Source: Bacteroidota bacterium
Lineage (GTDB): Bacteria; Bacteroidota; Bacteroidia; Palsa-965
Assembly (NCBI GenBank): GCA_031412295.1
Contig: JANOCU010000032.1
Location: 66,956-130,955, forward strand
Length of the DNA: 64,000 bases
Reading direction: 5' to 3'
A model generated the notes under the pieces. That model was given only the letters and a program-made list of their open reading frames with translations, ran no database searches and was not told the DNA's origin. Of the stretch, positions 9,886 to 63,104 are shown piece by piece. The position numbers were made by a program, and so were the translations under genes. Position 1 is the stretch's first letter, and each line of letters opens with the position of its first letter.

Positions 9886-9960
9886 CATTTTTTTTATTAA
9901 AAATGAATCAAATAATTGTCACAGGGGAGGCTAAGGATATCAGCTTCATCAATGGCTTCG

Positions 9961-10042
9961 GGGGAGATACTCAAGCGGCCAACGAGGACAGACTGTAAAT
10001 CTGTTGACTTAGTCTTCACAGGTTCGAATCCTGTTCTCCCCA
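9961..10042 (+). tRNA. tRNA-Tyr (anticodon GTA)
   Basis: The acceptor stem GGGGAGA pairs with TCTCCCC. Anticodon loop is CTGTAAA. The long variable arm is typical of tRNA-Tyr. Confidence 0.85.
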
Positions 10043-10109
10043 CACATCCACCCGGCTTGGGTGGATACCTGCAAGGCAAATGCAGTAGTAATCGGAAGAT
10101 AAAAATTAA

Positions 10110-10182
10110 GCGGAAGTAGCTCATTTGGTAGAGCGATAGCCTTCCAAGCTATAGGTGGCCGGTTCGAGCCCGGTCTTCCGCT
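10110..10182 (+). tRNA. tRNA-Gly (anticodon TCC)
   Basis: The acceptor stem GCGGAAG pairs with CTTCCGC. The anticodon stem-loop is ATAGC-CTTCCAA-GCTAT. Confidence 0.85.
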
Positions 10183-10304
10183 CAAAATAAAAAGAGCACG
10201 GCACGTCCAACGAAGCTTCAGCGCAGTTGGATCTTCCGCTCAAAAGAAAAGTTATCCCGAAAGGGAAAAGTGAAAATAGAAGTCCATTGCATCTCCTGAT
10301 CATC

Positions 10305-10376
<72 letters not shown>

Positions 10377-10506
10377 CACAAAGTTCCGGCTTTGAGAGTA
10401 AACAGCTCAACCAGGGGGAATGAGGCAACCGGATTTGAAAAATATTGAAGAGTAACATTACGAAACACAGAAACACAAACAATAATCAACACCAAAAACA
10501 ATAGCA

Positions 10507-23475: not shown

Positions 23476-24129
23476 ATGAACAATCAATTCCCGCGCGCTG
23501 CGAAATCCAATTCTGCTTTCAAAATAGTGATGATCTTTTGCCTGGTTTTGTTGGGTATCTGGATCATGGGAATGTTGGGCATTTATTTTTTATGCAATAA
23601 GATGATGAAAAGTTCAGAAGCTTACGAGCGAACCTTTACAGATTTTACGGGTGTATTTGAAGGAGATGATTCCGTTGTAGCTCCTTTATCAGGTGAAAAA
23701 ACCTTATTCGCTTTTTTTAATGTCAGGCGTACTCATTCAAAGATCGGCCCCGGACGTGATGACCCATCTGATGATTTCGAGTTTCTATATTTTAAACCAG
23801 GGACATTTTTTAATGTCAATGGCAAAAAGTACCACCTTTCAGGAACGCAGGTCCACAGATTTCATGGTAAAAAGAAGTACACTTCTTCCACTGAATTAAG
23901 TATTGTCGCCGTAAATTCAAGAGGAAAACATCATGATGAAATTCCTCCGGCGATCAATGGCCTTGATGTAAAGCTGGATAAATATCTTCGCGAGATAAAG
24001 GATTATTCATTCCAAGGTAATGGATGCGTTTTGTCTTTGAGAGAGTGGATTTATTCAGGAAAAGATACTGTTCAAATCCGCGTTCATGTACGAAATGATA
24101 CGATCTTCCTGAGAGAAAGCATGCGCTAA
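23476..24129 (+). CDS. Hypothetical membrane-anchored protein
   Basis: 217 aa. It has an N-terminal transmembrane helix, IVMIFCLVLLGIWIMGMLGIYFL, followed by a soluble domain of unknown function. Confidence 0.5.
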   Translation: MNNQFPRAAKSNSAFKIVMIFCLVLLGIWIMGMLGIYFLCNKMMKSSEAYERTFTDFTGVFEGDDSVVAPLSGEKTLFAFFNVRRTHSKIGPGRDDPSDDFEFLYFKPGTFFNVNGKKYHLSGTQVHRFHGKKKYTSSTELSIVAVNSRGKHHDEIPPAINGLDVKLDKYLREIKDYSFQGNGCVLSLREWIYSGKDTVQIRVHVRNDTIFLRESMR

Positions 24130-26538: not shown

Positions 26539-27405
26539 ATGAAAATATTCGAGCATAAAACAATTCTTGTAGCAGATGATGATCCGGGCAACCGTGAGCT
26601 TGTGGTAAGCACAATGCATAAGCTGGCAGAGGGAATTAAAGTGCTGTCGGCTTCGCATGGCGGACAGGTAATTGAAATTCTTAGCAAGCGGAATGTTGAT
26701 GCTGTGCTGCTCGATTGGGAAATGCCGGTGAAGGATGGTTATGCTGTGCTTTGTGAAATGAAAGCAAATCCAAGGTGGGCGGATATTCCTGTGCTTATGT
26801 ATACCGGTGTGATGACATCAAATGTGAATTTGGTAAAAGCGCTGGAGATTGGTGCGTCGGATTTTATCCGTAAGCCCACAGAACCGGTTGAGCTTACAGC
26901 GAGGATAAAATCTGCATTACAGCAGCGTGAAAATTTTAAAGCGTTGATTCGATTGGAGAAAGAAAGTGCGGAAATGCATGCGCTTGTTTTTGAAACCGAG
27001 ATCAGATCGCTTAAAGAGCAGCTCAATAATTACCTCATCCAGCTCGCGCGAAAAAATGAAGTGCTGATAAATGTGCGTGAACGTTTGATTAATGGAGAAG
27101 ACTCAATGGAGGCTGCCAGGTATATTGACAGTCTCGTGAACATGGAAAATTATTGGGATGAGCTGTTTCAGCAATTCAGCCGCCTCGATAAAAATTTCCT
27201 CACCACATTAAACGGTAAGCATGAAGACCTTTCGCCAAACGAATTAAAGTTTTGTGTGCTGCTTAAAGCCGGCATGGGATCAAAAGATATTGCGAGTCTT
27301 ATGAATGTATCCATCGCTGCAATTGAAAAGAACCGTTACCGCATTCGCAAAAAATTAGTGCTGAACCCGGAAGATTCCCTCGAAAAATATATTCTCTCTT
27401 TTTGA
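26539..27405 (+). CDS. Response regulator with a REC domain and a C-terminal LuxR-type HTH
   Basis: The REC domain reads KTILVADDDPGNREL...DAVLLDWEMPVKDGYAV...VLMYTG. The C-terminal HTH reads LSPNELKFCVLLKAGMGSKDIASLMNVSIAAIEKNRYRIRKKL. The ATG at 26539 sits immediately after the kinase stop codon TAG at 26532..26534. Confidence 0.85.
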   Translation: MKIFEHKTILVADDDPGNRELVVSTMHKLAEGIKVLSASHGGQVIEILSKRNVDAVLLDWEMPVKDGYAVLCEMKANPRWADIPVLMYTGVMTSNVNLVKALEIGASDFIRKPTEPVELTARIKSALQQRENFKALIRLEKESAEMHALVFETEIRSLKEQLNNYLIQLARKNEVLINVRERLINGEDSMEAARYIDSLVNMENYWDELFQQFSRLDKNFLTTLNGKHEDLSPNELKFCVLLKAGMGSKDIASLMNVSIAAIEKNRYRIRKKLVLNPEDSLEKYILSF

Positions 27406-27614
27406 TGCTGTTGTTTTAAGTAATATTTATTTGCGGAGATTTTATCCTTTCCTCCATCCGTTGATTTAATAATTTCTTTATATGCCTTCCGCTTTGTCCG
27501 GCTTTTGTCCGGCCGGCAGAATAGGCTGGTCCTCCCTTTTGAAATACTTTTGTGCTGATTTTACGAATTTCCCCGGCACCCCATTTTTACCTATTTCCTA
27601 TGTCAAGTGTTTCT

Positions 27615-30600
27615 ATGAAAAATAGACTGTTCACCATTGTGCTTGTTTTATTCAGCACAGCAGTATTCGCCCAGGTTATTACCCCTTTTTCCATTCGCTA
27701 TCAAACAACACAAAAAGGAGGCATTCGTTATCTTTCAAATACATCGGTAACATGCTCCGGTGTGGGGTGCGGAGCTGGTCGCTCAGAAGTTCCGCCCGCT
27801 GGTACTTCTACAGATAACGGGTTTACAGCGGCTTATGTTGATATCGACGCTGACGGAACAACATTCTCCTCTTCATCGGATAGTTTGGCGCTTCCGACTT
27901 GTAGTGAAATTTCATGGGCGGGGCTTTATTGGGGCGGTGAAATGACGAATGCCGGTGCAAACTATGCAACACGTAACCAGGTAAAGCTAAAAACAAATAA
28001 TGGTTCATACGTCAATCTTACTGCTGACGCTTTGCAGGATAATGCAGTTGGCTTCAGTACTTATCATTGCTACAAAGACATTACGGCTATCATGCAGGCA
28101 GGTGGCACCAATGCGCGTTATACCATTGCAAACGTTGCAGCACGCATAGGAGGAACAAATCGTTTTGGCGGATGGAGTATCGTGATCGTTTATAAAAATG
28201 ATTTGCAGCCAATGCGTAACCTGACGGTCTTTAACGGTTTGTCAAATGTGTCCGGTGCAAATCCTATTTCTGATATTACTGTAAGTGGATTTCTTACGCC
28301 ACTTTCCGGACCTGTTACGTTTGAAGTGGGTAATATTACCTATGACGGCGATCGCAGCTCCACCGGGGATCAATTGATGTTCAACGGAGGTAGTGGATTT
28401 GTAAATATCCTGGATGCCGTTAATCCAACGAATGATATTTTCAACAGCACCTATTCTTACAATGGTGTTCAGAAAGTTACGCCATTCATTAATCCGGGCT
28501 ATACCAATAGTCTTGGGTATGATGCTGATATTTTCCTTCCGAATAATGCAGCGAAAAATTTCATTGGAAACAGCGCAACCTCTGCAACACTACGACTAAC
28601 CACGGGAGGAGAAACCTTTCTCACCCAGGTTGTAACAATGGCCATTGACGTGTACGAGCCTGATCTTCGAGCCGCATGTCGTGTTGTCGATCTTAATGGC
28701 GGCTCTGTGCTTCCCGGCGACATTCTCGAATACACAATCGTCGGAAAAAACATTGGTTCGGATCCTTCTGTCAATACGTATATCACTGATACGCTCGAGT
28801 ATAACTCTGTATATATTCCGGGATCATTAAGTATTCTTTCCGGACCAAATGCTGGTCTTAAAACAGATGCAGCAGGTGATGATCAGGCAGAATACATTAC
28901 AGCCAGCCGTACAGTAAAAGTGCGCATAGGAACCGGTGCGAATGCAGTATCAGGAGGGCAGGTAAATAATTCCCCGCTTGGTATCGACAGCACACAAATC
29001 AGGTTTCGTACAATGGCAACGACAGATTGTATTGTATTACAATGTGATAATATTATTAATAACCGCGCTTACATTTTCGGGACAGGAAACGTTTCCGGAA
29101 ATAATTTTAACAACGGAAGTAATCCGAATATTTTTGACGGAAACGGATGCCCTGTTCCCGGAACAACAAACACCCCGATCAGCGCGGCAAGCTGTACACC
29201 ACCTTCCTCTTCAAGCAATTCACCTGTCTGCACAGGCTCAACATTAAGTCTTACCACCAGCCCATCCTCATCTATCGCCACTTATTCGTGGACAGGCCCG
29301 GGCGGATTTGTATCAACCGCAGCAAATCCAAATCGCGCTAATGCTACTGCTGCTATGGCAGGAACATATACGTGTGTTATCACTATTCCTGGTTCGGCTT
29401 GCTCATTTACAGTCACCACAACAGTTGTCATTAATACAAGACCTGCAACACCGGCTCCATCCAGCAACACACCGGTTTGTTCAGGCAATACAATCAATCT
29501 TTCAACTGCTGCAGTTGCAGGTGCAACATATTCATGGACCGGGCCATCTGCATTTGCTTCAGCGCTGCAAAATCCAACGCGCCCGGCCGCAACAGTTGCA
29601 ATGAGCGGAACCTATAGCGTAACGGTCACGGCAAATGGTTGTACTTCTGCAGTCGGAACAACTGTCGTCATTGTCAATTCAACTCCGGCAACTCCGGCAC
29701 CATCAAGCAACACTCCTGCTTGTACAGGAAACACAATTAATCTTTCCACAGCAGCAGTTGCAGGAGCTACATATTCCTGGACAGGGCCAAATTCATTTGC
29801 TTCTGCAGTACAAAATCCATCCATTGTAAATGCAACACCAGCAATGGCCGGGACTTACAGTGTAACTGTTACAACAAATGGTTGCACATCAGCAGTTGGA
29901 ACAACAGCAGTGGTTGTCAATGCAACTCCTGCAACACCTGCACCTTCAAGCAACACTCCTGTTTGTACAGGCAACACAATTAATCTTTCGACTGTAGCAG
30001 TTGCAGGAGCTACCTATTCCTGGACAGGTCCGAACAGTTTTGCTTCAGCAGTACAAAATCCATCCATTGTAAATGCAACAGCAGCAATGGCCGGAACATA
30101 CAGTCTAACTGTTACAACAAATGGTTGTACATCTGCGGTCGGAACAACTGTGTTGGTAATTAATACAACACCTGCAACACCTGCCCCGTCAAGCAACACA
30201 CCTGTTTGTACAGGCAACACAATTAATCTTTCTACTGCAGCAGTAGCAGGTGCAACTTATTCCTGGACTGGACCAAACAGTTTTGCTTCTGCCGTTCAGA
30301 ATCCTGCTATTGTTAATGCTACAACAGCAATGGCTGGAACGTACAGTGTGGTAGTTACAGCAAATGGTTGCTCATCGGCAGTCGGAACTACAGCTGTGGT
30401 TGTTAACTCAACTCCTGCTGCACCGGCACCATCAAGCAATTCACCGGTTTGTACAGGAAATACAATTAATCTTTCCACTGCAGCAGTAGCTGGAGCAACG
30501 TATTCATGGACCGGACCAGCTGCTTTTGTTTCTGCAGTTCAAAATCCAACACGTGCAGGTGCAACCGCTGCAATGGCGGGAACATATAGTGTAACTATTA

Positions 30601-33600
30601 CAACAAATGGTTGTACATCCCCAGTCGGAACTGTTGCTGTTGTTATCAATGCAACACCGGCCGCACCAACTGCTTCAAGCAATTCACCGGTTTGTACAGG
30701 CAATACAATTAATCTTTCAACACCAGTTGTAGCAGGGGCAACCTATTCCTGGACCGGACCAAATTCATTTGCTTCAGCGGTACAAAATCCATCTATTGTA
30801 AATGCAACAGCAGCAATGGCCGGCACTTATAGTGTAACCGTTACTACCACAGGTTGTACTTCGGCAGTCGGAACAGTTGCGGTTGTTGTGAATGCAACTC
30901 CGGCTGCACCAGCGCCATCAAGCAACTCTCCTGTTTGCACCGGAAATACAATCAATCTTTCTACAACAGCAGTAGCAGGCGCAACGTATTCCTGGACCGG
31001 ACCAAATTCATTTGTTTCAGCAGTACAAAATCCATCCATTGTAAATGCAACAGCAGCAATGGCCGGAACATATAGCTTAACTATTACTACAACAGGTTGT
31101 ACTTCGGCAGTCGGAACAATTGCTGTAATTATCAATGCAACTCCTGCTGCACCAACTGCATCAAGCAACTCTCCTGTTTGTAGCGGAAATACAATTAACC
31201 TTTCTACACCTGCCGTTGCAGGCGCGACTTATTCATGGACAGGACCAGCTGCATTTGTTTCTGCAGTTCAGAATCCAACACGCGCAAGCGCAACAGTTGC
31301 AATGTCCGGAACATATAGTGTGACGATTACGACTAACGGATGTACTTCAGCAGTCGGCACAGTTGCAGTAATTGTAAATGCAACACCGTCAACACCTGCG
31401 CCGTCAAGCAATTCACCTGTTTGTATCGGTAACACAATTAACCTTTCTACTGCAGCAGTTGCAGGCGCTACGTATTCATGGACAGGCCCGAACAGTTTTG
31501 TTTCAGCAGTACAAAATCCTTCAATTGTCAACGCAACAGCTGCGATGGCCGGAACATATAGTGTTACGGTAACAACCAATGGCTGTATATCTGCTGTGGG
31601 AACAACAGTGGTAACGATCACTCCGCCGCCAACAACAGCTGCGGCAGGTTCTGATCAGACCATTTGTGTGAACAGCACAACGATGGCTGCAAATGCTCCA
31701 ACAACCGGAACCGGAACATGGACGCAGATCAGCGGACCTGTTACGACAACGATCACTACGCCGTCATCTCCTGTAACAACTATTACGGGAATAACTACAG
31801 CCGGTACATATGTGTTCCAATGGACAATTTCAAATTCACCTTGCACAGCTTCAAGCGATTTAGTTTCCGTTATACTGAACGGAACAACCGCTGCCGCGAA
31901 TGCAGGGACTAATCAGCTGTTGTGCGATGTTACAACTACGGTTATGGCGGCAAATGCTGCTGCGCCGGGTGTTGGTTCATGGACACAAGTAAGCGGTCCG
32001 AATACAGCAACGATCACTTCACCAGCTTCTGAAACCACAACAATGACCGGTCTTATTACTGGTATATATGTTTTCGAATGGACCATTACAAATGCTCCAT
32101 GTCCTGCAACAACGGATAATGTAACAGTTACGATTTCTGCACAACCAACAACATCGTTTGCCGGTCCGGACCAGGCTATATGCAGTTCAGTTGCTTCAAT
32201 GCTTGCAAATACGCCGTCAGTCGGAGCAGGAACCTGGTCGCAGGTAAGTGGTCCGAACACTGCAACAATCACCACTCCAACTTCACCAGCAAGCACAATG
32301 ACCGGTTTAATTGCCGGAACATATGTGTTTGAATGGTCGATTGCAAATGCGCCTTGCGTTCAGTCGGATGATGTAGTTAGTATTGTTGTGAGCGCGGTTC
32401 CTACCACAGCAAATGCAGGAACTGATCAGACAATTTGTTCTGCTTCTGGTGCTGCTACTATGTCAGGAAATATTCCTGCTACCGGAACAGGTGCATGGAC
32501 GCAGGTAAGCGGACCAGTGAGTGCAACAATTACTTCTCCTTCTTCCGAAGCGACAACAATCACAGGTATGACAACTGCCGGCACCTATGTTTTCGAATGG
32601 AGCATCAGTAACGGTTCTTGTGCAGCTTCAAACGATTCAGTTAGTGTTATTGTAAATAATCCTCCGACAGTCGCCGCAGCTGGAAATAATCAATCGTTGT
32701 GTAATGTTACAACTGCTCTGATGAACGGAAATACTGCTGTGAACGGAACCGGTAACTGGACACAAATAAGCGGTCCGAATACAGCAACCATCACAACTCC
32801 TTCTTCTGAAGGAACAACAATGACAGGACTCATTGCAGGCACTTATGTATTTGAATGGACAATTTCCAATTCACCTTGTGCTGCTACAACTTCACAAGTA
32901 CAAGTTGACATTTTCGATTTGCCGACAACTTCAAATGCAGGCCCTGATACATCAATTTGCGCAGCAGCCGCTTCTACAACGATGAACGCGAATGCTGCAA
33001 CAACAGGAACAGGAAACTGGTCACAGGTGAGCGGTCCTTCAACAGCAGCGATTACAAATCCTGCTTCCCCGGTTACAACAGTTACCGGAATGGTTGCCGC
33101 AGGAACATATGTTTTCCAATGGGAAATCAGCAATGGTGTTTGTGCAGTGAGCGCTGATAGCATGCAGGTTATTGTAGCTGATCCGCCGACAACTTCCAGC
33201 GCAGGTGCTGATCAAACATTGTGTAACAGCGCAGCCGCTACAATGGGTGCAAATACTGCCGGAACAGGAACAGGTGCATGGACACAAATCAGCGGACCAA
33301 ACACCGCAACAATTACTTCACCGGCTTTCGAATCTACATCGGTGACAGGACTTATTGCAGGAACATATTTATTTGAATGGACAATTACCAGCGGCGCTTG
33401 CACACCAAGTTCCGACACAATACAAATTACAATTGATGATCTGCCAACAGCTTCGAACGCAGGTGCTGATCAGCAAATTTGTAATGCAACTGCAATAACG
33501 ATGGCTGCTAATATTCCATCAACAGGAACAGGAATGTGGTCGCAGTTGAGTGGTCCGAATACAGCGATAATTTCTTCACCATCTTCTGAAGCTACAACGA

Positions 33601-35813
33601 TCACAGGATTAACTTCCGGTGCTTACGTATTCGTTTGGTCGATAACGAATGGTGTTTGTGCTGTAAGTACTGACAGTGTGAATGTGATCGTTGATCCGTT
33701 ACCAACAACAGCATCAGCAGGGCCTGATCAATTGAGCATTTGTCCGCCGGTAACAACGATGACTGCGAATGTTCCAACAGAAGGAACAGGAATGTGGTCA
33801 CAACTAAGTGGTCCGAATACAGCGACCATCACCACACCGAATTCTGCAACGACAACAATTTCTTCGATCACATCAGGAACGTATGATTTTGTATGGACGA
33901 TCAGCAGCGGTGTTTGTGCTTCAAGCGCAGATACAATTCAAGTTGTTGTTATTCCATGTGATTCCGACGGTGATGGTGTTGCTGATCTCACAGAAGTTTC
34001 CGACGGAACAAATCCAAATGACCCATGCGATTATCTCACAGCAAGTGTGAATTTAATCCAGGGTGGTCTTTGGAATCTTGCGGATTGTGATGGTGATGGT
34101 GTGACGAACGGAACTGAGATCACTGACGGAACAAATCCAAATGATCCGTGTGATCATCTTGTTGCAAACATTACTTTATCGCAAGGCGGAAATTGGAATA
34201 CTGCAGATTGTGATAACGATGGTGTAACAAACGGAACAGAAATTGTTGACGGAACAAATCCATCTGATCCTTGCGATTATATTGCTGCAAACATGACGCT
34301 TCCACAAGGAGCAACCTGGAATGTGGCTGATTGTGATGGTGACGGAGTAATCAACGGAACAGAAGTAGCTGATGGAACAAATCCGAATAATCCTTGCGAT
34401 TATCTTACCGCCAATATTACATTATCACAAGGCGGAAACTGGAATGTTGCGGATTGTGACGGTGATGGTGTAATCAACGGAACAGAAATTACTGACGGAA
34501 CAAACCCGAATAATCCATGTGAATATCTTGCTGCGAATATTACTTTATCGCAAGGCGGAAACTGGAATGCTGCGGATTGCGACGGTGATGGTGTGACGAA
34601 CGGAACTGAAATTGCTGATGGAACAAATCCGAATAATCCATGCGAATATCTTGCTGTAAATATTACTTTATCACAAGGTGGAAATTGGAATGCTGCAGAT
34701 TGTGATGGAGATGGTGTGATCAACGGAACAGAAATTATTGACGGAACAAATCCGAATAATCCATGCGATTATTTGACAGCAAGCATGACATTGCCACAAA
34801 CAGGAAATTGGAATGTTGCGGATTGTGATGGTGATGGTGTAACAAACGGAACGGAGATCGTTGATGGAACAAACACAACTGATCCATGCGATTATCTTAC
34901 TGCAAACGTTACACTTCCGCAAGGAGGAAATTGGAATACGGTTGATTGTGACGGTGACGGTGTAACAAACGGAACTGAAATTGTTGACGGAACAAATCCA
35001 AACAATCCATGCGATTATCTTCTTGCAAATGTTACGCTTACTCCGGGTGGAAATTGGAATGCTGCAGATTGCGATGGTGATGGTGTGATCAACGGAACAG
35101 AAGTAGTTGACGGAACAAATGCAACTGATCCATGCGATTACTTAGCTGCAAACATGACGCTGCCACAAACCGGAAGCTGGAATGTTGCAGATTGTGATGG
35201 CGACGGAGTAACAAACGGAACAGAAGTAACCGACGGAACAAATACAAATGATCCATGCGATTACCTTGCTGCGAATGTTACGCTTCCACAAGGCGGAAAC
35301 TGGAACATTGTTGATTGCGATGGTGACGGTGTAACCAACGGAACTGAAATCGCTGACGGAACAAATCCGGATGCACCATGTGATCTCTTGCTTGCAAGTC
35401 AAACGCTTCCGCCAAATGCTGCGTGGAATGCATTGGATTGTGATGCTGACGGAATTACCAACGGCGTAGAAATTACCAATGGAAATAATCCATTAGATCC
35501 TTGCGATCCGAATGCATGCGACCTCATTATTCCTGAAGGATTCTCGCCGAACGGAGATGGCATCAATGATATTTTCGAGATCAAAGGAATTTCTGCTTAT
35601 CCGAATAATACAGTAACCATGTTTAACCGCTGGGGTAACTTAGTTTACAAAGCTGCCGGTTATGACAATGGTTCTGTGAGCTGGGATGCAACCAACCAGG
35701 GCGAGCTTAGCACCGGTTCCGGTCCATTACCGGAAGGAACTTATTTCTACGTCATCGATCTCGGTGATGGAAGCCCGATACGTTCCGGTTATGTATTTGT
35801 AAATCGTCAATAA
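27615..35813 (+). CDS. Giant cell-surface adhesin of about 2,730 aa with a type-B T9SS C-terminal domain (gliding-motility-associated CTD); SprB-like
   Basis: The signal peptide is MKNRLFTIVLVLFSTAVFAQ. An N-terminal globular region includes a DUF11-like segment, GDILEYTIVGKNIGSDPSVNTYITDTL. The first array is 11 x 80-aa Cys-containing beta-sandwich repeats (PVCTGNTINLST...ATYSWTGP...AGTYSVTVTTNGCTSAVGT). The second array is 9 x about 86-aa repeats (AGxDQxIC...GTGxWxQxSGP...GTYVFEWTIxNxxC). The third array is 12.5 x 42-aa Asp-rich thrombospondin-type-3-like Ca-binding repeats (DCDGDGVTNGTEIxDGTNPNxPCDY...). The C-terminus reads IPEGFSPNGDGINDIFEI...MFNRWGNLVY...GTYFYVIDL, which is the type-B sorting domain. 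The true start is likely the internal Met at 27615 rather than 27552. Confidence 0.9.
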   Translation: MKNRLFTIVLVLFSTAVFAQVITPFSIRYQTTQKGGIRYLSNTSVTCSGVGCGAGRSEVPPAGTSTDNGFTAAYVDIDADGTTFSSSSDSLALPTCSEISWAGLYWGGEMTNAGANYATRNQVKLKTNNGSYVNLTADALQDNAVGFSTYHCYKDITAIMQAGGTNARYTIANVAARIGGTNRFGGWSIVIVYKNDLQPMRNLTVFNGLSNVSGANPISDITVSGFLTPLSGPVTFEVGNITYDGDRSSTGDQLMFNGGSGFVNILDAVNPTNDIFNSTYSYNGVQKVTPFINPGYTNSLGYDADIFLPNNAAKNFIGNSATSATLRLTTGGETFLTQVVTMAIDVYEPDLRAACRVVDLNGGSVLPGDILEYTIVGKNIGSDPSVNTYITDTLEYNSVYIPGSLSILSGPNAGLKTDAAGDDQAEYITASRTVKVRIGTGANAVSGGQVNNSPLGIDSTQIRFRTMATTDCIVLQCDNIINNRAYIFGTGNVSGNNFNNGSNPNIFDGNGCPVPGTTNTPISAASCTPPSSSSNSPVCTGSTLSLTTSPSSSIATYSWTGPGGFVSTAANPNRANATAAMAGTYTCVITIPGSACSFTVTTTVVINTRPATPAPSSNTPVCSGNTINLSTAAVAGATYSWTGPSAFASALQNPTRPAATVAMSGTYSVTVTANGCTSAVGTTVVIVNSTPATPAPSSNTPACTGNTINLSTAAVAGATYSWTGPNSFASAVQNPSIVNATPAMAGTYSVTVTTNGCTSAVGTTAVVVNATPATPAPSSNTPVCTGNTINLSTVAVAGATYSWTGPNSFASAVQNPSIVNATAAMAGTYSLTVTTNGCTSAVGTTVLVINTTPATPAPSSNTPVCTGNTINLSTAAVAGATYSWTGPNSFASAVQNPAIVNATTAMAGTYSVVVTANGCSSAVGTTAVVVNSTPAAPAPSSNSPVCTGNTINLSTAAVAGATYSWTGPAAFVSAVQNPTRAGATAAMAGTYSVTITTNGCTSPVGTVAVVINATPAAPTASSNSPVCTGNTINLSTPVVAGATYSWTGPNSFASAVQNPSIVNATAAMAGTYSVTVTTTGCTSAVGTVAVVVNATPAAPAPSSNSPVCTGNTINLSTTAVAGATYSWTGPNSFVSAVQNPSIVNATAAMAGTYSLTITTTGCTSAVGTIAVIINATPAAPTASSNSPVCSGNTINLSTPAVAGATYSWTGPAAFVSAVQNPTRASATVAMSGTYSVTITTNGCTSAVGTVAVIVNATPSTPAPSSNSPVCIGNTINLSTAAVAGATYSWTGPNSFVSAVQNPSIVNATAAMAGTYSVTVTTNGCISAVGTTVVTITPPPTTAAAGSDQTICVNSTTMAANAPTTGTGTWTQISGPVTTTITTPSSPVTTITGITTAGTYVFQWTISNSPCTASSDLVSVILNGTTAAANAGTNQLLCDVTTTVMAANAAAPGVGSWTQVSGPNTATITSPASETTTMTGLITGIYVFEWTITNAPCPATTDNVTVTISAQPTTSFAGPDQAICSSVASMLANTPSVGAGTWSQVSGPNTATITTPTSPASTMTGLIAGTYVFEWSIANAPCVQSDDVVSIVVSAVPTTANAGTDQTICSASGAATMSGNIPATGTGAWTQVSGPVSATITSPSSEATTITGMTTAGTYVFEWSISNGSCAASNDSVSVIVNNPPTVAAAGNNQSLCNVTTALMNGNTAVNGTGNWTQISGPNTATITTPSSEGTTMTGLIAGTYVFEWTISNSPCAATTSQVQVDIFDLPTTSNAGPDTSICAAAASTTMNANAATTGTGNWSQVSGPSTAAITNPASPVTTVTGMVAAGTYVFQWEISNGVCAVSADSMQVIVADPPTTSSAGADQTLCNSAAATMGANTAGTGTGAWTQISGPNTATITSPAFESTSVTGLIAGTYLFEWTITSGACTPSSDTIQITIDDLPTASNAGADQQICNATAITMAANIPSTGTGMWSQLSGPNTAIISSPSSEATTITGLTSGAYVFVWSITNGVCAVSTDSVNVIVDPLPTTASAGPDQLSICPPVTTMTANVPTEGTGMWSQLSGPNTATITTPNSATTTISSITSGTYDFVWTISSGVCASSADTIQVVVIPCDSDGDGVADLTEVSDGTNPNDPCDYLTASVNLIQGGLWNLADCDGDGVTNGTEITDGTNPNDPCDHLVANITLSQGGNWNTADCDNDGVTNGTEIVDGTNPSDPCDYIAANMTLPQGATWNVADCDGDGVINGTEVADGTNPNNPCDYLTANITLSQGGNWNVADCDGDGVINGTEITDGTNPNNPCEYLAANITLSQGGNWNAADCDGDGVTNGTEIADGTNPNNPCEYLAVNITLSQGGNWNAADCDGDGVINGTEIIDGTNPNNPCDYLTASMTLPQTGNWNVADCDGDGVTNGTEIVDGTNTTDPCDYLTANVTLPQGGNWNTVDCDGDGVTNGTEIVDGTNPNNPCDYLLANVTLTPGGNWNAADCDGDGVINGTEVVDGTNATDPCDYLAANMTLPQTGSWNVADCDGDGVTNGTEVTDGTNTNDPCDYLAANVTLPQGGNWNIVDCDGDGVTNGTEIADGTNPDAPCDLLLASQTLPPNAAWNALDCDADGITNGVEITNGNNPLDPCDPNACDLIIPEGFSPNGDGINDIFEIKGISAYPNNTVTMFNRWGNLVYKAAGYDNGSVSWDATNQGELSTGSGPLPEGTYFYVIDLGDGSPIRSGYVFVNRQ
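29190..31630 (+). repeat. In-frame tandem array of about 11 copies of a 240-nt unit, up to about 90% identical
   Basis: For example, the units at 29449 and 29689 are near-identical, as are units at 240-nt spacing throughout. Confidence 0.85.
31621..33950 (+). repeat. In-frame tandem array of about 9 copies of an approximately 258-nt unit
   Basis: The protein-level motif PTTxxAGxDQxIC...GTYVFEWxI recurs with this period. Confidence 0.8.
33957..35520 (+). repeat. In-frame tandem array of about 12.5 copies of a 126-nt unit encoding DCDGDGVTNGTE... Ca-binding-type repeats
   Basis: GATTGTGATGGTGATGGTGT recurs every 126 nt. Confidence 0.85.
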
Positions 35814-35880
35814 AAAAAATATGGTAATCCGACTAATGCCTATTTGGTAAACCCGGTTTCGGCCGACGACAAAAAACAAA

Positions 35881-36813
35881 ATGAAAAAAATAATCTTCAG
35901 CAGTATGCTGCTCATCATTTCCGCTTCGCTGAAGCTTTCAGCGCAGCAGGATCCGCAGTTTACGCATTACATGTACAATACACTCAGCGTAAATCCGGCC
36001 TACGCAGGCAGCAGAGACGTGCTTAACATCAGCGCGCTTCATCGCCAGCAATGGATCGGGTTGAACGGCGCACCGACTTCACAATCCGTGCAGGTTCATT
36101 CGCCTTTGAAAAATAAAAAAATGGGTTTAGGATTTTCGGTCATCAACGATCGTATCGGGCCTATTAATCAAACATTTTTTTACGCGGATTATTCCTACAC
36201 CGTCAAGTTGGCTGAAAAGTTGAAGTTGAGCTTCGGCGTGAAAGGTGGAGTAAATTGGTTTCAACCGAAGATCGCTGAGCTCAATACGATCCAGGCGAAT
36301 GATCCTTCATTTGTCGGAAGCACATTGCAAAGCAGCGTTAAGCCGAACTTCGGAGCAGGAATTTATTTGCATCACGAGCGTTGGTATTTTGGTGCGAGCG
36401 CGCCGCGTTTGGTGCAGAATGCTTTTAACCTCGGCGAAGGAAACAGCGATACAACTTCTTTAAAAGAGTTGCGTCACCTGTTTTTTATCGGCGGCGTAAT
36501 TATTCCTGTTTCATCAGATCTGAAATTGAAACCGACGTTCCAGGTGAAGATGGTGCAAAATTCGCCGGTTTCTATTGATGCAACTGTTGAAGCATTGTTC
36601 CGTGAAAAGTTTTCTGTCGGATTAGGTATGCGTTACAATGACAGCTATTATGCATTAGTTGGCTACCAGCTGACAAGTCAGTTCCGCGCAGGTATTTCTT
36701 ACGATTATACATCAACAAAACTTCAAAATGTAAATAACGGAACAGTTGAAATTAACCTCAGCTACGATTTCAACAACAAGCAGGACAAACTGCGCTCACC
36801 GCGTTATTTCTAG
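35881..36813 (+). CDS. Type IX secretion system membrane protein of the PorP/SprF family
   Basis: 310 aa. It has a signal peptide followed by QQDPQFTHYMYNTLSVNPAYAG, the hallmark N-terminus of PorP/SprF. It lies immediately downstream of a type-B CTD cargo gene. Confidence 0.8.
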   Translation: MKKIIFSSMLLIISASLKLSAQQDPQFTHYMYNTLSVNPAYAGSRDVLNISALHRQQWIGLNGAPTSQSVQVHSPLKNKKMGLGFSVINDRIGPINQTFFYADYSYTVKLAEKLKLSFGVKGGVNWFQPKIAELNTIQANDPSFVGSTLQSSVKPNFGAGIYLHHERWYFGASAPRLVQNAFNLGEGNSDTTSLKELRHLFFIGGVIIPVSSDLKLKPTFQVKMVQNSPVSIDATVEALFREKFSVGLGMRYNDSYYALVGYQLTSQFRAGISYDYTSTKLQNVNNGTVEINLSYDFNNKQDKLRSPRYF

Positions 36814-36831
36814 GTTCAATAAAAAGTAAAA

Positions 36832-39045
36832 ATGAAAAATAGTATCGCAATATTTTTATCGCTTGTCCTTTTTTCTTCAATTGGATTTGCGCAGGGTTTA
36901 ACTGTGAAAAGTGCAGATCGCGCATTCGACAGGCTTGCTTATGTAAGAGCAGCAGAATTATACCTGCGTGTTGCTGACAAGAAAGGCAATGATCGCGTGT
37001 ATGAGCGGCTTGGAGATTGTTACCGCTTAATGGGACAAACAAATAAATCTGAATCGTGGTACGGAAAAGTTGCAACCGGTGCAGCGCCAACACCGACTTC
37101 ACTTTTGTATTATGCAGAAGCATTGCGTGCAAATGGAAGATACGATGAGAGTGATGCGTGGATGAAAAAATATTTTGCAGTTCGGGCAGATGATAACCGT
37201 GCAAAGCTGTATGTAAATAACTCCGCCTATTTTGAAGCGCTGAAAACACAGCAACCTTATTTTTCTATCAGCAATCTTGATGTCAATACACCGCAGGCTG
37301 ATTTCGGAACAACATTTTATAATGGAAAAATAGTTTTCGCTTCATCACGTATCGATCAGGTGGCAGTAAAAAATACACACTCGTGGAATGATATGCCTTT
37401 CCTGAATTTATACATTGCAGATCGTGACGAGCAGGGAAATCTTAGCAAAGTTGTAACACTGAATCAAAAGTTGAATACACGTTATCATGAAGGACCTGCA
37501 TGTTTTTCGACTGATGGAAATGTGTTGTATTTCACACGCAATAATTATTTTAAGAATGAATTCCGCAGAGACAAAAAGGGAATTAATAATCTTAAAATTT
37601 TCAGGGCAAAAAATGTAAATGGAACCTGGCAGGAAGAAAATCTGTCGATCAATAGTGATGAATTTTCTGTTGGGCATCCAACCATTTCACCTGATGGCAA
37701 CTTCCTTTATTTTGTCAGCGATATGCCTGGCGGAAAAGGAATGACAGATATTTACCGTGTGCAAATTAACCCTGACGCATCACTCGGAACCCCCGAAAAC
37801 CTGGGTGATGCTGTCAACACGGAAGGGCGTGAAATGTTTCCTTTTTTAGACACGGAAGGCAACCTGTTTTTCTCCTCCGACGGACAAGTTGGTCTTGGTG
37901 GACTGGATGTTTTTTATGCAGCGAACGATCGTAAAAATGGTTTTGCTAAGGTGACGAATGTTGGATTGCCTGTCAATTCTTCTTCTGATGATTTTGCGCT
38001 TGTGTTGGATGCTTCAGGTAAAAGCGGTTATTTCAGCAGCAACCGCGATGGCGGAAAAGGTGATGATGATATTTATGCGCTGAATCTTGTTCGTCCGTTC
38101 AAAACAACTTATTTATTGAAAGGAATTGCAAAAGATAAAGTGACAGGGCTTCCGCTTGTTTCATCTGAAGTATTGCTCAAAGAAAATTCCGGAAGTGTAA
38201 GCGATTTAATTACGACAGATGCAACAGGCGCTTTTCAATTTGAAATTGAACCGGATAAAAATTACACCTTAAGCGGAACAAAAGACAACTATTTTCCAGG
38301 AATGATGACGATCACTACCGTAAACATCGGTGATCAGACTGAGCTTACGCGCGATATTGCACTGGAAAAAGATCCGGGACTTGCCTTGTATTTTCTATTG
38401 AAAGATAAAGCAGACCGCAACGCTATTCGTGATGTGAAAATTAAGATCACAAATAATTTGACAGGAAAAACAGACAGCGTTTTCTCACTTGAAAATGGAG
38501 ACTTCAGAATTCCGGTAACAGGAAAAAAGATCGGCGAACAGTTAAGCTATAACATATCCTTTGAAAAGCCCGGCTATCTTTCGAAAAGCATGACATACAC
38601 TGCTGCGATCGAAAAAGAAGGGGAGATACGCATCGAAGAGAATCTCGATAAAATTTCCGTCGGACTCGATCTCGCAAAGATCATTGACATCAAACCAATT
38701 TATTTCGATCTCGGAAAATCCATCATTCGTCCTGATGCTGCAATTGAGCTTGACAAAATTGTAAAAGTGATGAATGAAAATCCGAACATGATCGTAGAGC
38801 TTGGTTCGCATACAGATTGTCGCGGAACAGCAGCATCCAACACATCACTTTCCGACAGAAGAGCAAAAGCATCGGCAGAATATATCAAGAAGCGCATTTC
38901 CAATCCAACCCGCATCTACGGAAAAGGATTCGGAGAAAGTCAGCTTACAAACGGATGCCAGTGTGAAGGCGCAGTAAAAGCAACTTGCTCCGAAGACGAA
39001 CATCAGAAAAACCGCCGCACGGAATTCAAGATCATCAAAATGTAA
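36832..39045 (+). CDS. PorE-like T9SS-associated OmpA-family protein with TPR, a TolB-like beta-propeller, a carboxypeptidase-regulatory-like domain and OmpA_C
   Basis: 737 aa. The N-terminal TPR is AYVRAAELYLRVADKKGND...GDCYRLMGQ. The PD40-type repeats include YFTRNNY, YFVSDMPGGKGMTDIY, FFSSDGQVGLGGLDVF and YFSSNRDGGKGDDDIY. The C-terminal OmpA-like domain is IYFDLGKSIIRPDAAIELDKIVKVMNENPNMIVELGSHTDCRGTAASNTSLSDRRAKA. Confidence 0.75.
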   Translation: MKNSIAIFLSLVLFSSIGFAQGLTVKSADRAFDRLAYVRAAELYLRVADKKGNDRVYERLGDCYRLMGQTNKSESWYGKVATGAAPTPTSLLYYAEALRANGRYDESDAWMKKYFAVRADDNRAKLYVNNSAYFEALKTQQPYFSISNLDVNTPQADFGTTFYNGKIVFASSRIDQVAVKNTHSWNDMPFLNLYIADRDEQGNLSKVVTLNQKLNTRYHEGPACFSTDGNVLYFTRNNYFKNEFRRDKKGINNLKIFRAKNVNGTWQEENLSINSDEFSVGHPTISPDGNFLYFVSDMPGGKGMTDIYRVQINPDASLGTPENLGDAVNTEGREMFPFLDTEGNLFFSSDGQVGLGGLDVFYAANDRKNGFAKVTNVGLPVNSSSDDFALVLDASGKSGYFSSNRDGGKGDDDIYALNLVRPFKTTYLLKGIAKDKVTGLPLVSSEVLLKENSGSVSDLITTDATGAFQFEIEPDKNYTLSGTKDNYFPGMMTITTVNIGDQTELTRDIALEKDPGLALYFLLKDKADRNAIRDVKIKITNNLTGKTDSVFSLENGDFRIPVTGKKIGEQLSYNISFEKPGYLSKSMTYTAAIEKEGEIRIEENLDKISVGLDLAKIIDIKPIYFDLGKSIIRPDAAIELDKIVKVMNENPNMIVELGSHTDCRGTAASNTSLSDRRAKASAEYIKKRISNPTRIYGKGFGESQLTNGCQCEGAVKATCSEDEHQKNRRTEFKIIKM

Positions 39046-39113
39046 TTTCACCTGGCGGCCTTCTGAACGTTTCGCACAGCCACATTAAAGCTATTTTACA
39101 CACCATATAAGTG

Positions 39114-39149
39114 ACACCGCGGGCTTAAACTGGCCTTGCGGTGTTTTTT
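39114..39149 (+). terminator. Rho-independent terminator after the PorE-like gene
   Basis: ACACCGCGGGC, loop TTAAACTG, then GCCTTGCGGTGT followed by TTTTTT. Confidence 0.6.
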
Positions 39150-39169
39150 GTGCAGATTATTTATCCAAC

Positions 39170-39720
39170 GGTAAGGGTTGTCCGGCTTTTGTCTGGCTTG
39201 CTGAATTGACTTACGTTTCTTATTGGAATACTTTAGTAATAAGTTTAGATCATTGCAATAACCCCTTATTACCCACTGCGCAAAATGAAAAATTCAGTTC
39301 TACAACCGGGCAAATTCCCACATGAAAAAACAGAGAACGCCTCAATTGAAGCGACTCAAAAAAAGGGTTTCCCTGTCAGAGAAAAAACATCGCTTGACAT
39401 CACAAAAAAGCTTCACCAGATTTTGCAAAAGCGCCTGGTACAATACGCTGATCAGGATTAATAAAAAGCTCAACTCACTAGTGCATTACGTTCTGTATTT
39501 CCCCGTTTTATAAATCTTCTGCCGATCAGAAATCGAAGACAATAAGTAAACCGTGTACAATTTAACCCTGGCTCCATTTCCCGGAACCCCTGAAAACCCG
39601 GGTGGTGTGGTCTACACGGAAGAACGAGAAGTTTTCGTTCTTAGCCACTAAAGGCAACCTGTTCTTTTTACCCCAACGAACAGGTTGACCTTGGTGCTCT
39701 TACCTGGTTGAAATTCTGAA
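39170..39720 (+). pseudogene. Decayed partial duplicate of a leader resembling the adhesin gene's upstream region plus a segment of the PorE-like gene
   Basis: 39170..39300 resembles 27490..27610 (GTCCGGCTTTTGTCYGGC ... GGAATACTTT ... ATGAAAAAT). 39322..39720 is a degenerate, out-of-frame copy of about 37490..37920; for example CCGTGTACAATTTAACCCTGGC versus CCGTGTGCAAATTAACCCTGACGC, and CACGGAAGAACGAGAAGTTTTCGTTCTTAGCCACTAAAGGCAACCTGTTCTTTTT versus CACGGAAGGGCGTGAAATGTTTCCTTTTTTAGACACGGAAGGCAACCTGTTTTTCT. No intact ORF remains. Confidence 0.45.
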
Positions 39721-39765
39721 ATAGAAAAAGCAAAGAAGATTAATTCTTATTCTACAGGACCCGAA

Positions 39766-39800
39766 AAACAGCTGTCAATTATGACGGCTGTTTTCTTTTT
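39766..39800 (+). terminator. Rho-independent terminator at the end of the decayed duplicate
   Basis: AACAGCTGTC, loop AATTATG, then ACGGCTGTT followed by TTTCTTTTT. Confidence 0.5.
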
Positions 39801-40018
39801 GTAGTAGTCGAACTATAATCTTTCAATAGAACTTAGCCTGCTGCTATTTATTACGCCGCCATTCATGGCCGGGGGCAAACAAACGCAGCAGTACCGGCTT
39901 TAGCTAAATACATACAGCACTGATCCACGGCATTCTCCCTGATAATTCCCTGGATCTCATTAAAAAGCCTGTCTATAATTTTAGGTAACTTTATCCCACT
40001 AATAAAACACAAAACACC

Positions 40019-40333
40019 ATGCAAGACGATAACAACAATCAGCAGCTCAATATCGAATTAAACGAGGATGTAGCATCCGGTGTTTATTCCAATTTCGCAG
40101 TCATCACACATTCCGCTTCTGAATTTGTGCTCGATTTCATCCAGGTGATGCCCGGCGTTCCGAAAGCAAGAGTAAAGTCGCGCGTGATTCTTACACCACA
40201 GCACGCAAAACGTTTGATGAAAGCGCTGAAAGAAAATGTATCCCGTTTCGAAAGCGCTCACGGCGCAATCAACGATACCGAATTCGCACAAGCCTACCCA
40301 ATGAATTTCGGCGGACCAAAAGGACAAGCTTAA
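40019..40333 (+). CDS. Small conserved protein, probably of the DUF3467 family
   Basis: 104 aa. The core FAVITHSASEFVLDFIQVMPG matches this Bacteroidota-wide family as I recall it. Confidence 0.5.
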   Translation: MQDDNNNQQLNIELNEDVASGVYSNFAVITHSASEFVLDFIQVMPGVPKARVKSRVILTPQHAKRLMKALKENVSRFESAHGAINDTEFAQAYPMNFGGPKGQA

Positions 40334-52801: not shown

Positions 52802-53032
52802 GGAAAAGGAAAATAGGAAATTAAGGGGATAAATAATTAAGAATTGAGAAATTAGGTAAAGAAGTAATTAGACCTTCATCACATTCTATATTTTAGGTTG
52901 CATTTCCCGAATTTCTAATCTTCCAGTTTCGATTTGTTAATTGCCTATAGCTCCCATTTCCCTAATTCCCTAATTTCCCTAGTTTCCCCCTTTTCCCTAC
53001 CTTTGCATCCATACAAAAAACTCAACTCTTTC

Positions 53033-62950: not shown

Positions 62951-63104
62951 TGTAAAAGTTTTTTGATGATTAGGAGTGTAATAGTTTCGGTTCTCAACAG
63001 CTAAAATCATGCCATAGTCAGGCTTCCTTAAACTATTGACTCGGCGAAAATTATTAGCTTTACAGCCCTTGTAAATAAAGGGAAGTACCGAAGATAAGCT
63101 ATTT

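Follow-up and report, generated by a model that had tools for sequence, protein, structure and literature searches.

A giant adhesin gene, a PorP/SprF-family gene and a PorE-like gene follow one another on a single strand at positions 27615-39045 of the DNA analyzed here (a 64,000-nt stretch, the window), as established by open reading frames and HMM searches. Together with the sensor kinase and response regulator genes upstream, they probably make up a five-gene cassette in a T9SS-bearing Bacteroidota bacterium. The cargo/PorP-like/PorE-like triplet is an already known arrangement, and the locus is an ordinary example of it. The accounts in PMC12618676 and PMC9143113, which cite Kulkarni et al. 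2019, describe five or six such operons in F. johnsoniae, so the locus belongs to a known kind. What appears from sequence comparison to be new is the conserved linkage to a TPR-kinase/REC-LuxR pair and a shared operator-like DNA site. The sensor/regulator pair and its control site provide a testable handle on the switching-on of giant adhesins.

The whole is likely best explained as a tethered-adhesin triplet under TPR-kinase/REC-LuxR control. The Sec-exported adhesin would cross the outer membrane via the T9SS, and its uncleaved CTD would be taken up by the cognate PorP-like barrel and remain bound there. The PorE-like protein would link the PorP-like barrel to peptidoglycan, and the adhesin would therefore be a static fiber tethered to the cell wall rather than a gliding adhesin. 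These anchoring steps draw on published work on PG1035-PorP-PorE, SprB-SprF and Fjoh_3952-3951-3950 (PMC9143113, PMC12618676, PMC5053529), and the regulatory steps draw on comparative genomics.

The two-component system

Every gene lies where the preliminary description had placed it. The sensor histidine kinase gene (24240..26534, + strand) matches HATPase_c (79 bits), HisKA (26 bits) and TPR_12 (35.5 bits). Its product is ordered as an N-terminal signal/anchor, an extracytoplasmic TPR region of ~390 aa, a TM helix at ~aa 413-436, HisKA and HATPase_c, and an 80-aa C-terminal tail. The periplasmic TPR region and the putative control of a surface appendage recall FimS of P. gingivalis, a TPR-sensor kinase over fimbrial genes, but the FimS-like model that is the best NCBIfam match scores only 126 bits, far under its cutoff of 600, and the match spans the kinase core. 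The response regulator (288 aa; 26539..27405, + strand) consists of a REC domain (79.9 bits to Response_reg), a helical linker of approximately 100 aa and a C-terminal LuxR/sigma70-region-4-type HTH. Its family is 280-294 aa long with an invariant C-terminal K..RYR.RKK motif. The true start is MKIFEHK, 5 nt past the kinase stop; a longer reading frame starting at 26488 was rejected. The REC and LuxR-type HTH domains joined by a long linker set the protein apart from the OmpR-type FimR and from PorX-type regulators; the T9SS regulators PorXY-SigP were named beside FimS/FimR among the closest systems.

The operator-like repeat and the adhesin promoter

The gap between the regulator stop and the adhesin ATG measures 209 nt (210 nt had been given earlier). 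It contains a tandem direct repeat, TTGTCCGGC-TT-TTGTCCGGC, with an 11-nt period (27494..27513, + strand; half-sites TTGTCCGG), located at ~-63 to -44 of the predicted adhesin promoter. A -7 box, TACTTTTG (27545..27552, + strand), begins 51 nt from the operator start. This box fits TAnnTTTG, reportedly the -7 consensus of Bacteroidetes, and no clear -33 element was found in the adhesin promoter. The operator 20-mer matches twice in 64 kb, compared to 0.02 matches expected. The operator to -7 box offset is 51-52 nt in 14/14 aligned sites, and no columns of the 14 promoters are invariant apart from those of both half-sites and the -7 box. The kinase would phosphorylate the regulator, which would bind the direct repeat TTGTCCGGN-NN-TTGTCCGGN, probably as a tandem dimer, with the repeat's center ~55 nt upstream of the start site. 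The bound regulator is predicted to activate an otherwise weak adhesin-operon promoter.

In at least five genomic contexts, whose regulators share 45-100% identity, a giant surface-protein gene accompanies the two-component system. The kinase, regulator, adhesin (CHU_C), PorP and PorE-like order recurs on a 4.8-Mb contig with a regulator 72% identical to the one here, and on an ENA contig of the 64% regulator family. The kinase and regulator genes precede a giant Ig/PKD protein in further contexts: beside SecDF/TatA/GlnA (L009, L010), in L014/15, in L019 and in L012/L022. At least three unrelated head domains occur in the proteins downstream. All linked loci keep the operator in front of the giant gene. 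Each of them has a single PWM site of at least 23 bits, located without exception between regulator and giant gene, and across the other loci (about 1 Mb) the best score is 17.4 bits. The closest genome found to that of the window is a 'Bacteroidia bacterium' MAG.

It is unlikely that the two-component system is a mere neighbor controlling other genes, with the direct repeat bound by another factor or serving as an UP-like element of the promoter. Neither an adjacent adhesin nor a strong site accompanies the orthologous systems at 57% identity (L011, L017, L018) or more distant ones (L013, L021, L025-27), and adhesins are likewise missing beside orthologues at 43% identity or less. The regulator HTH also scores under the Pfam cutoffs (Sigma70_r4_2, 22.3 bits; GerE, 17.3 bits). 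Against this, linkage to the giant gene persists while the upstream contexts and the downstream head domains change, the operator is confined to loci that have both the regulator and the giant gene and is missing from L011, whose orthologous system has no adhesin, and it remains beside the regulator in two loci that have lost the adhesin (L096, L016). The case for control of the adhesin by the pair, which the preliminary description had raised as a candidate, is strengthened by this linkage and by the conserved operator-like repeat.

The adhesin and its predicted tether

The adhesin is a giant type-B T9SS cargo of 2,732 aa (27615..35813, + strand; ORF and HMMs), close to the ~2,730 aa described before. 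A signal peptide, MKNRLFTIVLVLFSTAVFAQ, followed by VITPF (27615-27674) precedes the head module (27675-29186), three repeat arrays and the type-B CTD (35505-35810), all on the + strand. The CTD assignment was borne out by profile searches: aa 2639-2726 match TIGR04131 with 50.0 bits (curated cutoff 35), and PF13585 CHU_C scores 90.7 bits. The next gene encodes a PorP/SprF-family outer-membrane protein of 310 aa, the putative cognate shuttle/anchor (35881..36813, + strand). Its family membership, claimed from its N terminus, holds across the whole TIGR03519 profile (278.7 bits, cutoff 90.55; positions 1-292 of 292) and in PF11751 (280 bits).

The third gene encodes a 737-aa candidate periplasmic tether (36832..39045, + strand). 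The four-domain layout claimed for it stands, with TPR, a PD40 beta-propeller (49 bits), two CRD-like domains (CarboxypepD_reg, 46.6 bits), the second of them weak, and a peptidoglycan-binding OmpA_C domain (OmpA, 48.6 bits); the TPR match is weak at 22.9 bits, under its cutoff. HTD and LSDRRA residues are kept in the OmpA_C domain, and among PDB structures that of the PorE C-terminal domain, 6TOP, matches best (E 1e-15). The protein is not PorE itself. It scores 367.5 bits against NF052230 PorE (cutoff 600) and 434 bits against NF053607 (CHU_0125; cutoff 620), and its SPI-type signal peptide has no lipobox Cys, hence the name PorE-like. The missing lipoprotein Cys means that its outer-membrane attachment would rest wholly on the PorP-like partner.

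The three genes are predicted to be co-transcribed as a dedicated unit, as the preliminary description had proposed. No terminator or hairpin was found in the 67-nt adhesin-PorP gap or the 18-nt PorP-PorE-like gap, relatives share the gene order, and L096 has lost the adhesin, PorP and the 5' half of the PorE-like gene as one block. An intrinsic terminator follows at 39106..39152 (+ strand; -24 kcal/mol, z = -5.2, then a U6 run).

Fjoh_3952/Fjoh_3951/Fjoh_3950 has the same order on one strand, cargo to PorP-like to PorE-like (a PorE homologue). In contrast to Fjoh_3952, the cargo here carries a head module and Ig-like, K319L-PKD and TSP3-like arrays, and in a comparison of gene order and cargo, a TPR-kinase/REC-LuxR pair and an operator-like repeat precede the locus here. 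The F. johnsoniae operons are proposed to form a static peptidoglycan-anchored complex (PMC9143113, PMC12618676). PG1035-PorP-PorE of P. gingivalis likewise unites a type-B CTD protein, a PorP barrel and a peptidoglycan-binding TPR/beta-propeller/CRD/OmpA_C protein (PMC9143113), PorE being PG1058 (PMC5053529; structure PDB 6TOP). However, PorP and PorE of P. gingivalis are single-copy core T9SS components outside any operon with cargo, and PorE is a lipoprotein, whereas the PorE-like protein has an extra CRD-like segment. PorE is not an established requirement for the secretion of type-B cargos, and the PorP-PG1035 complex forms in its absence (PMC9143113).

That the adhesin is instead a mobile, SprB-like cargo is improbable. 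SprB of F. johnsoniae is also a giant repeat adhesin carrying a type-B CTD that needs an adjacent PorP/SprF-family protein, SprF, and the head module of the adhesin is common to proteins with SprB repeats. [quoted passage not shown] Equally improbable is that the third gene encodes a general T9SS PorE or a CHU_0125-type outer-membrane-integrity protein rather than a dedicated tether. These two families are its best NCBIfam matches, and the approximately 740-aa form is widespread (>7,600 homologues at E <= 1e-30). Nevertheless, both scores fall under the curated cutoffs, only 18 nt separate the gene from the cargo/PorP pair, and the relatives examined have it together with PorP and a CHU_C cargo. 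Its joint loss in L096 occurred although another type-B cargo was kept, and many Bacteroidetes hold 2-13 PorE paralogues (PMC5053529).

The repeat arrays

The three consecutive blocks described earlier were recovered on the + strand with revised periods and copy numbers. Class 1 is an Ig-like array of 10 x 81 aa (aa 525-1335; 29187-31619) with a DNA period of 243 and a divergent copy 1, not 11 x 80 aa with a 240-nt period. Class 2 agrees with the 9 x about 86 aa reported, having 9 x 85-88 aa (aa 1336-2115; 31620-33959) and nine matches to PF22352 K319L-like PKD (204 bits). Class 3 is a TSP3-like Ca-binding array of ~13 x 41 aa (aa 2116-2630; 33960-35504; PF18884 bacterial TSP3, 149 bits), with 12 full copies, one partial copy and a DNA period of 123 in place of 12.5 x 42 aa and 126 nt. 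The Ca-binding repeats would lie closest to the cell, followed by 9 PKD and 10 Ig-like domains and, at the tip, a beta-sandwich head of roughly 500 aa. The repeat collapse previously thought likely is in fact unlikely, because the copies are only 70-88% identical in DNA and exact repeats reaching 60 nt are absent. Assembly artefacts are a very doubtful source of the arrays or of their copy numbers. Contigs built from short reads of the same genome or of relatives end within arrays (class 1 in L006, class 3 in L001) and class-1 copies vary among relatives (7, 10 and 12), but the 8.2-kb reading frame is unbroken and two independent contigs of 4.8-5.0 Mb show the same three-block layout (12/9/14 copies).

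The region downstream of the triplet

An orphan second type-B CTD protein is encoded on the opposite strand 1.4 kb downstream of the triplet. With this protein so close by, the earlier term 'self-contained' fits the operon and not the neighborhood. L096 retains the orphan along with the two-component system and both operators.

The only other copy of the operator 20-mer in the 64 kb, TTGTCCGGCTTTTGTCTGGC, follows the PorE-like gene at 39178..39197 (+ strand), with a -7 box, TACTTTAG, at 39229-39236 (+ strand). This second adhesin-type promoter would drive a 58-aa hydrophilic ORF (39285..39461, + strand) without a Pfam match. The ORF is conserved in relatives, its homologues of 58 and 57 aa being 83% and 46% identical, and it occupies the same position in L096/L097; in L096, the operator and -7 box also precede it. 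Beyond the ORF lies a relic, its frame broken, of part of a PorE-like gene (39550..39696, + strand) with 77% nt identity to 37754-37900 (E 3e-26). A second intrinsic terminator, with a 13-bp stem (39765..39804, + strand; -18 kcal/mol, z = -4.3) and a T-run, is predicted to end the small-ORF unit.

Gene organization of the adhesin locus

Six consecutive plus-strand genes are located directly 3' of rpoB-rpoC in the window. The first (23476-24129) encodes a 217-aa membrane protein that has a TM segment at its N terminus and matches no Pfam or NCBIfam family. The others encode a histidine kinase of 764 aa (24240-26534), a response regulator (RR) of 288 aa, a 2,732-aa adhesin (27615-35813), a 310-aa PorP/SprF-family protein (35881-36813), and a 737-aa PorE-like protein (36832-39045). 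The ATG at 26539, 5 nt past the kinase stop, is the real start of the regulator. The gaps of 67 nt before porP and 18 nt before the porE-like gene lack a stable hairpin (z = -0.17), and a strong terminator (-24 kcal/mol, z = -5.2, U6) is found 60-105 nt past the PorE-like stop. Gene content, family memberships, operon layout, and the conservation of synteny and of the operator described below are direct observations. The preliminary description of the last three genes as a triplet holds as a whole, with minor numerical correction of the array figures, and its interpretation as a dedicated attachment and secretion unit for a single adhesin is supported. The order type-B cargo, PorP/SprF-like, PorE-like has already been described (PMC9143113, PMC12618676), and therefore the window triplet is a further example and not a new arrangement.

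The 217-aa ORF between rpoC and the kinase is also present in the compared loci L006 and L007 (201 aa, 127 bits). It is missing from the 86%-identical MAG L001, which has a 50-nt gap instead of 726 nt, and it lies outside the two-component system (TCS) cassette in other genomic contexts.

The adhesin has three repeat arrays and a type-B CTD

The adhesin N terminus is a Sec signal peptide, assigned by reading the sequence directly (MKNRLFTIVLVLFSTAVFAQ, aa 1-20, followed by VITPF). HMM analysis places a type-B CTD at the extreme C terminus (aa 2639-2726 of 2732) with scores of 50.0 bits for TIGR04131 (cutoff 35) and 90.7 bits for PF13585 CHU_C (cutoff 27), in agreement with the CTD type first assigned by eye. 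The head of ~505 aa is followed by three arrays that succeed one another strictly. Class 1 consists of 10 Cys-paired Ig-like units of 81 aa (Ig_2, Ig_7 'CHU_C associated'), class 2 of 9 K319L-like PKD units of 85-88 aa (204 bits), and class 3 of 12 full and one partial bacterial TSP3 units of 41 aa with the form DCDGDG...DGTNPNDPCD. The strict block order had been recognized at the outset; the original figures of 11 x 80 aa and 12.5 x 42 aa were slightly off. PF18884 (bacterial TSP3, DxDxDG-type motif) matches eight stretches of class 3 with 149 bits, and the thirteen DCDGDG units are spaced by exactly 41 aa. These TSP3-like repeats are a candidate Ca-binding segment.

Array copies in the window adhesin are 70-88% identical in DNA and 72-91% identical in protein, and the gene contains no exact repeat of at least 60 nt. 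It follows that the arrays are old, are under purifying selection, and are unlikely to collapse with reads of at least 100 nt, contrary to the initial view that repeat collapse was likely. An adhesin orthologue with the same three blocks occurs on two contigs of 4.8-5.0 Mb (12/9/14 copies). Class 1 has 10 copies in the window (29187-31619), 12 in L007, and 7 in L001, and class 3 has 13 in the window (33960-35504), 14 in L007, and at least 5 in L001. The class-2 PKD array is constant at nine copies in all three. No Pfam family matches the first 340 aa of the head, yet the head is a widespread N-terminal module. It is fused in Bacteroidota to SprB, cadherin-like, or Ig repeats with a type-A or type-B CTD, and it is also found in DUF11 proteins from other phyla.

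The PorP/SprF-like and PorE-like partners

The PorP/SprF-like protein matches TIGR03519 over the whole profile (1-292 of 292) with 278.7 bits (cutoff 90.55), bearing out an assignment originally made from its N-terminal signature, and matches PF11751 with 280.2 bits. The OMP_b-brl match is sub-threshold (18.9 bits, threshold 28.7), and no solved homologue was found by sequence. An exact-sequence query with the protein returned no match. The gene directly follows the type-B cargo gene on the same strand with no intervening terminator, and a porP-like gene is directly 3' of the cargo gene also in L094, a relative with a 72% identical regulator, and in L095. Secretion of the adhesin via the T9SS with the PorP/SprF-like protein as its cognate partner is probable, based on the adjoining porP-like gene, the other T9SS cargos in the window, and the literature.

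The four domains expected of PorE (TPR, beta-propeller, CRD, and OmpA_C) are present in the PorE-like protein in the order TPR_12 (22.9 bits, weak), PD40 (49), CarboxypepD_reg (46.6), and OmpA (48.6). A second CRD-like segment is weak (23 bits); PorE homologues with a longer CRD region are known (PMC5053529). The best-scoring NCBIfam models for the protein are the CHU_0125 OmpA-like outer-membrane integrity family NF053607 (434.2 bits, equivalog cutoff 620) and the PorE family NF052230 (367.5 bits, NCBI cutoff 600), below the cutoff in each case. It is a paralogue inside the PorE/CHU_0125 superfamily and an orthologue of neither. Its signal peptide (MKNSIAIFLSLVLFSSIGFAQ, followed by GLTV) has no lipobox Cys, and there is no Cys among the first 60 residues, whereas P. 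gingivalis PorE has a lipobox cysteine. The OmpA_C domain most resembles 6TOP, the crystal structure of the PorE C-terminal domain (E 1e-15), and retains the peptidoglycan-binding residues HTD and LSDRRA in GSHTDCRG...LSDRRAKA. It departs from LSX2RAX2VX3L at the later V and L, which are S and I. More than 7,600 proteins match the PorE-like protein at E <= 1e-30, and many are ~730-760 aa among the best 120 of these, thus the ~740-aa form is common. Some species have 2-13 PorE paralogues (PMC5053529).

The sensor kinase and response regulator

The kinase consists of a signal-peptide-like N terminus, a TPR-rich region of ~390 aa, one TM helix, HisKA, and HATPase_c. The order of signal-like sequence, TPR region, and TM helix makes the TPR part extracytoplasmic, as the preliminary description had it. 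The match to the FimS-type family NF053520 is confined to aa 303-675 and scores 125.8 bits, under the cutoff of 600. The regulator, a candidate NarL/FixJ (LuxR-type) member, is composed of REC (79.9 bits), a helical linker of ~100 aa, and a C-terminal HTH that stays under the cutoffs of both Sigma70_r4_2 (22.3 bits against 25.7) and GerE (17.3 bits against 23.5). Across the family, its C-terminal segment hardly varies. The window regulator is 100% identical to P0001 and to the copy on the Logan contig L006. A GTDB genome scan with the kinase returned one true relative, the Bacteroidia MAG L001 (86% nt identity); the other four matches were unrelated kinases.

A direct repeat with fixed spacing to the -7 box precedes the adhesin

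The spacer between the regulator and the adhesin contains the putative operator TTGTCCGGCTTTTGTCCGGC (27494-27513). It is a direct repeat in tandem, with the half-site TTGTCCGG and a period of 11 nt. Allowing up to three mismatches, the operator occurs twice in 64 kb compared with 0.02 expected. The same repeat is found between regulator and giant gene at every linked locus. At these loci, a -7 box of the Bacteroidetes type (TAnnTTTG, the consensus for promoters in Bacteroides and Flavobacterium, or a sequence with one mismatch to it) begins 51-52 nt from the first base of the repeat. The invariant columns of 14 aligned regions are GTCCG, TTTGTC, and TA..TT only. An operator PWM scores 23.6-33.3 bits at linked sites; its maximum is 17.4 bits across the other ~70 loci and 13.5 bits in the rest of the window. 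A sigma-70-type promoter scan gave fewer matches than shuffles, as is expected for Bacteroidota. The position of the operator at roughly -63 to -44 and the lack of a clear -33 element fit an activator-dependent adhesin promoter. The co-occurrence of operator and regulator suggests that the adjacent regulator may be the operator-binding protein, and from the comparisons made here the TCS would activate the adhesin via the direct repeat.

The two-component system is linked to giant surface proteins

Linkage was surveyed in the neighbourhoods of regulator homologues and in 14 further full-length family loci from metagenomes. The histidine kinase-regulator pair (HK-RR) is followed by a giant Ig/PKD-repeat protein on the same strand in several settings. 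The rpoC context is shared by the window, L001, and L007/L094. L009 and L010 have a SecDF-TatA-GlnA context; the giant protein there is 4,666 aa long, and its head differs. HK-RR and a giant Ig/PKD-repeat gene are also present in L014/L015. The full order HK-RR, 2,580-aa CHU_C protein, PorP, PorE-like is found in L095, and L019 joins HK-RR to a 3,285-aa protein with CTD_B and a head as in the window adhesin. The more distant L012/L022 (RR 45-46% identity) carry giant proteins with DUF7948/SBBP/PKD or DUF11/PKD domains. No giant gene is found beside the TCS in L011, L017, and L018 (RR 57-58%) or, with the exceptions of L012/L022, at the examined loci with RR identity of 49% or less (L013, L020, L021, L025-L027).

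L011 and L019 have the same TCS and share some upstream genes, namely a GDSL-type lipase and two size-matched minus-strand ORFs beside the kinase, with annotation on the L011 genes only. Downstream of the 57%-identical RR, L019 contains the operator and its type-B adhesin, whereas L011 has neither an adhesin nor an operator site, and its next genes, DNase II among them, are on the opposite strand. Because the upstream genes are shared, the difference looks like a presence/absence polymorphism of the adhesin.

A second operator and a natural deletion in the operon

The second operator copy is located at 39178-39197, 133 nt past the PorE-like stop, with the -7 box TACTTTAG at 39229. Next come a hydrophilic ORF of 58 aa (39285-39461), a piece of a PorE-like gene with a broken frame (39550-39696; 77% identity to window positions 37754-37900 in the PorE-like gene), and a strong terminator (39765-39794). 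Homologues of the small ORF are 58 aa (83% identity) and 57 aa (46%) long. L096/L097 have the homologue of the small ORF in the same place, with an operator copy before it at the same offset; L094 is without the second-site unit, and its gap is 128 nt. We read the second site as a second promoter of the adhesin regulon within a rearrangement scar. The stretch 39145-39804 resembles a rearrangement scar or a decayed duplicate module. Rfam searches over 39000-40100 gave nothing above chance. A 561-nt transcript model folds well (z = -3.8) but is partly the PorE-like gene relic, and an sRNA is not claimed.

L096 (RR 82% identical) joins the first ~87 adhesin codons to codon ~299 of the PorE-like gene. 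The deletion is equivalent to window 27877-37703 and removes the adhesin, PorP, and the 5' half of the PorE-like gene. L096 keeps the TCS and both operators together with the small ORF, DUF3467, and the convergent NIDO/PKD/CHU_C protein. L016 shares the 3' junction of L096 and has decayed further. In L096 (3952-5669) and L016 (864-1260), whose regulators are 79-82% identical, a 440-aa PorE-like remnant is left from MPGGKG, and the TCS persists with both operator copies. The PorP-like and PorE-like genes are thus dispensable once the adhesin is gone, and the neighbouring orphan type-B protein is probably independent of this PorP.

A 720-aa orphan type-B protein (NIDO, PKD, and CHU_C, 85 bits) is encoded convergent to the operon at 40475-42637 (-) with no adjoining porP-like gene. 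Sharing of the adhesin's PorP shuttle by the orphan is unlikely because the two CTDs are only 31% identical and the orphan, which is kept in L094 and L096, persists even after the loss of PorP. In L094, an additional gene of the PKD/CHU_C type (896 aa) adjoins the orphan. A DUF3467 protein (110 bits) lies between the cassette and the orphan at 40019-40333 (+) and is conserved in place in L094 and L096/L097.

A model for tethering and regulation

Binding has been shown for the P. gingivalis PorE-PorP-PG1035 complex and for F. johnsoniae SprB-SprF (PMC9143113), and cognate CTD/shuttle pairs have been demonstrated (PMC12618676). For F. johnsoniae, PMC9143113 gives six porP-like genes that adjoin porE-like genes, and PMC12618676 counts five cargo/PorP-like/PorE-like operons. 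Non-mobile type-B proteins are proposed to be tethered to the wall by means of PorP-PorE-like complexes (PMC9143113), and the Fjoh_3952 CTD behaves as a static signal, in keeping with the PorE homologue Fjoh_3950 (PMC12618676). Following this literature, the window adhesin would be exported by the T9SS, its CTD would be retained on the putative PorP-like barrel, and the PorE-like protein would bridge the barrel to peptidoglycan. The adhesin would then be a static fibre with the putative Ca-binding TSP3-like segment proximal and the head distal. The static, wall-tethered model for PorE-like-containing operons rests on very few examples, and the window locus is a clean natural one. The L096-type deletion variant loses cargo, shuttle, and tether together.

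To our knowledge, type-B T9SS adhesins are the least understood T9SS cargo class, and we know of almost nothing on the signals that control their expression outside PorXY-SigP of Porphyromonas. The sensor-regulator-operator cassette was not found described in the literature searched and is what this locus adds to the described triplet. We give an even chance to the reading that the TPR-kinase/REC-LuxR pair and the TTGTCCGGN-NN-TTGTCCGGN operator make up a portable cassette of sensor and promoter, whose dedicated role in several Bacteroidota lineages is to activate the giant T9SS surface protein located 3', whichever it is. Heads and repeat types would vary by lineage, the cargo operon would be repeatedly gained and lost, and the second operator would control the conserved 57-58-aa protein, perhaps an accessory or feedback factor. 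If true, it would be the first description of a signal-transduction module dedicated to type-B T9SS adhesin operons. The regulatory hypothesis that the locus offers is testable and comprises the kinase and regulator, the 20-bp operator with its fixed spacing to the -7 box, and a regulon of two promoters.

Other features of the window

The organism clearly makes heavy use of the T9SS. Four proteins with type-A T9SS sorting domains (Por_Secre_tail) are encoded at 3125-4732 (+), 5996-7567 (-), 52934-55210 (+), and 55308-56876 (+); SprB repeats are present in one of them and copper type II monooxygenase-like domains in another. Two DUF1573/HYDIN-VesB-like Ig-domain proteins are near each other at 60020-61051 (-) and 62342-63493 (-). 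Four clustered tRNA genes (Thr, Tyr, Gly, Thr; 9813-10377) have a tyrosine recombinase (Phage_integrase with a SAM-like N domain; 8237-9160, +) ~650 nt upstream and are followed by tuf, tRNA-Trp, nusG, rpl genes, and rpoBC.
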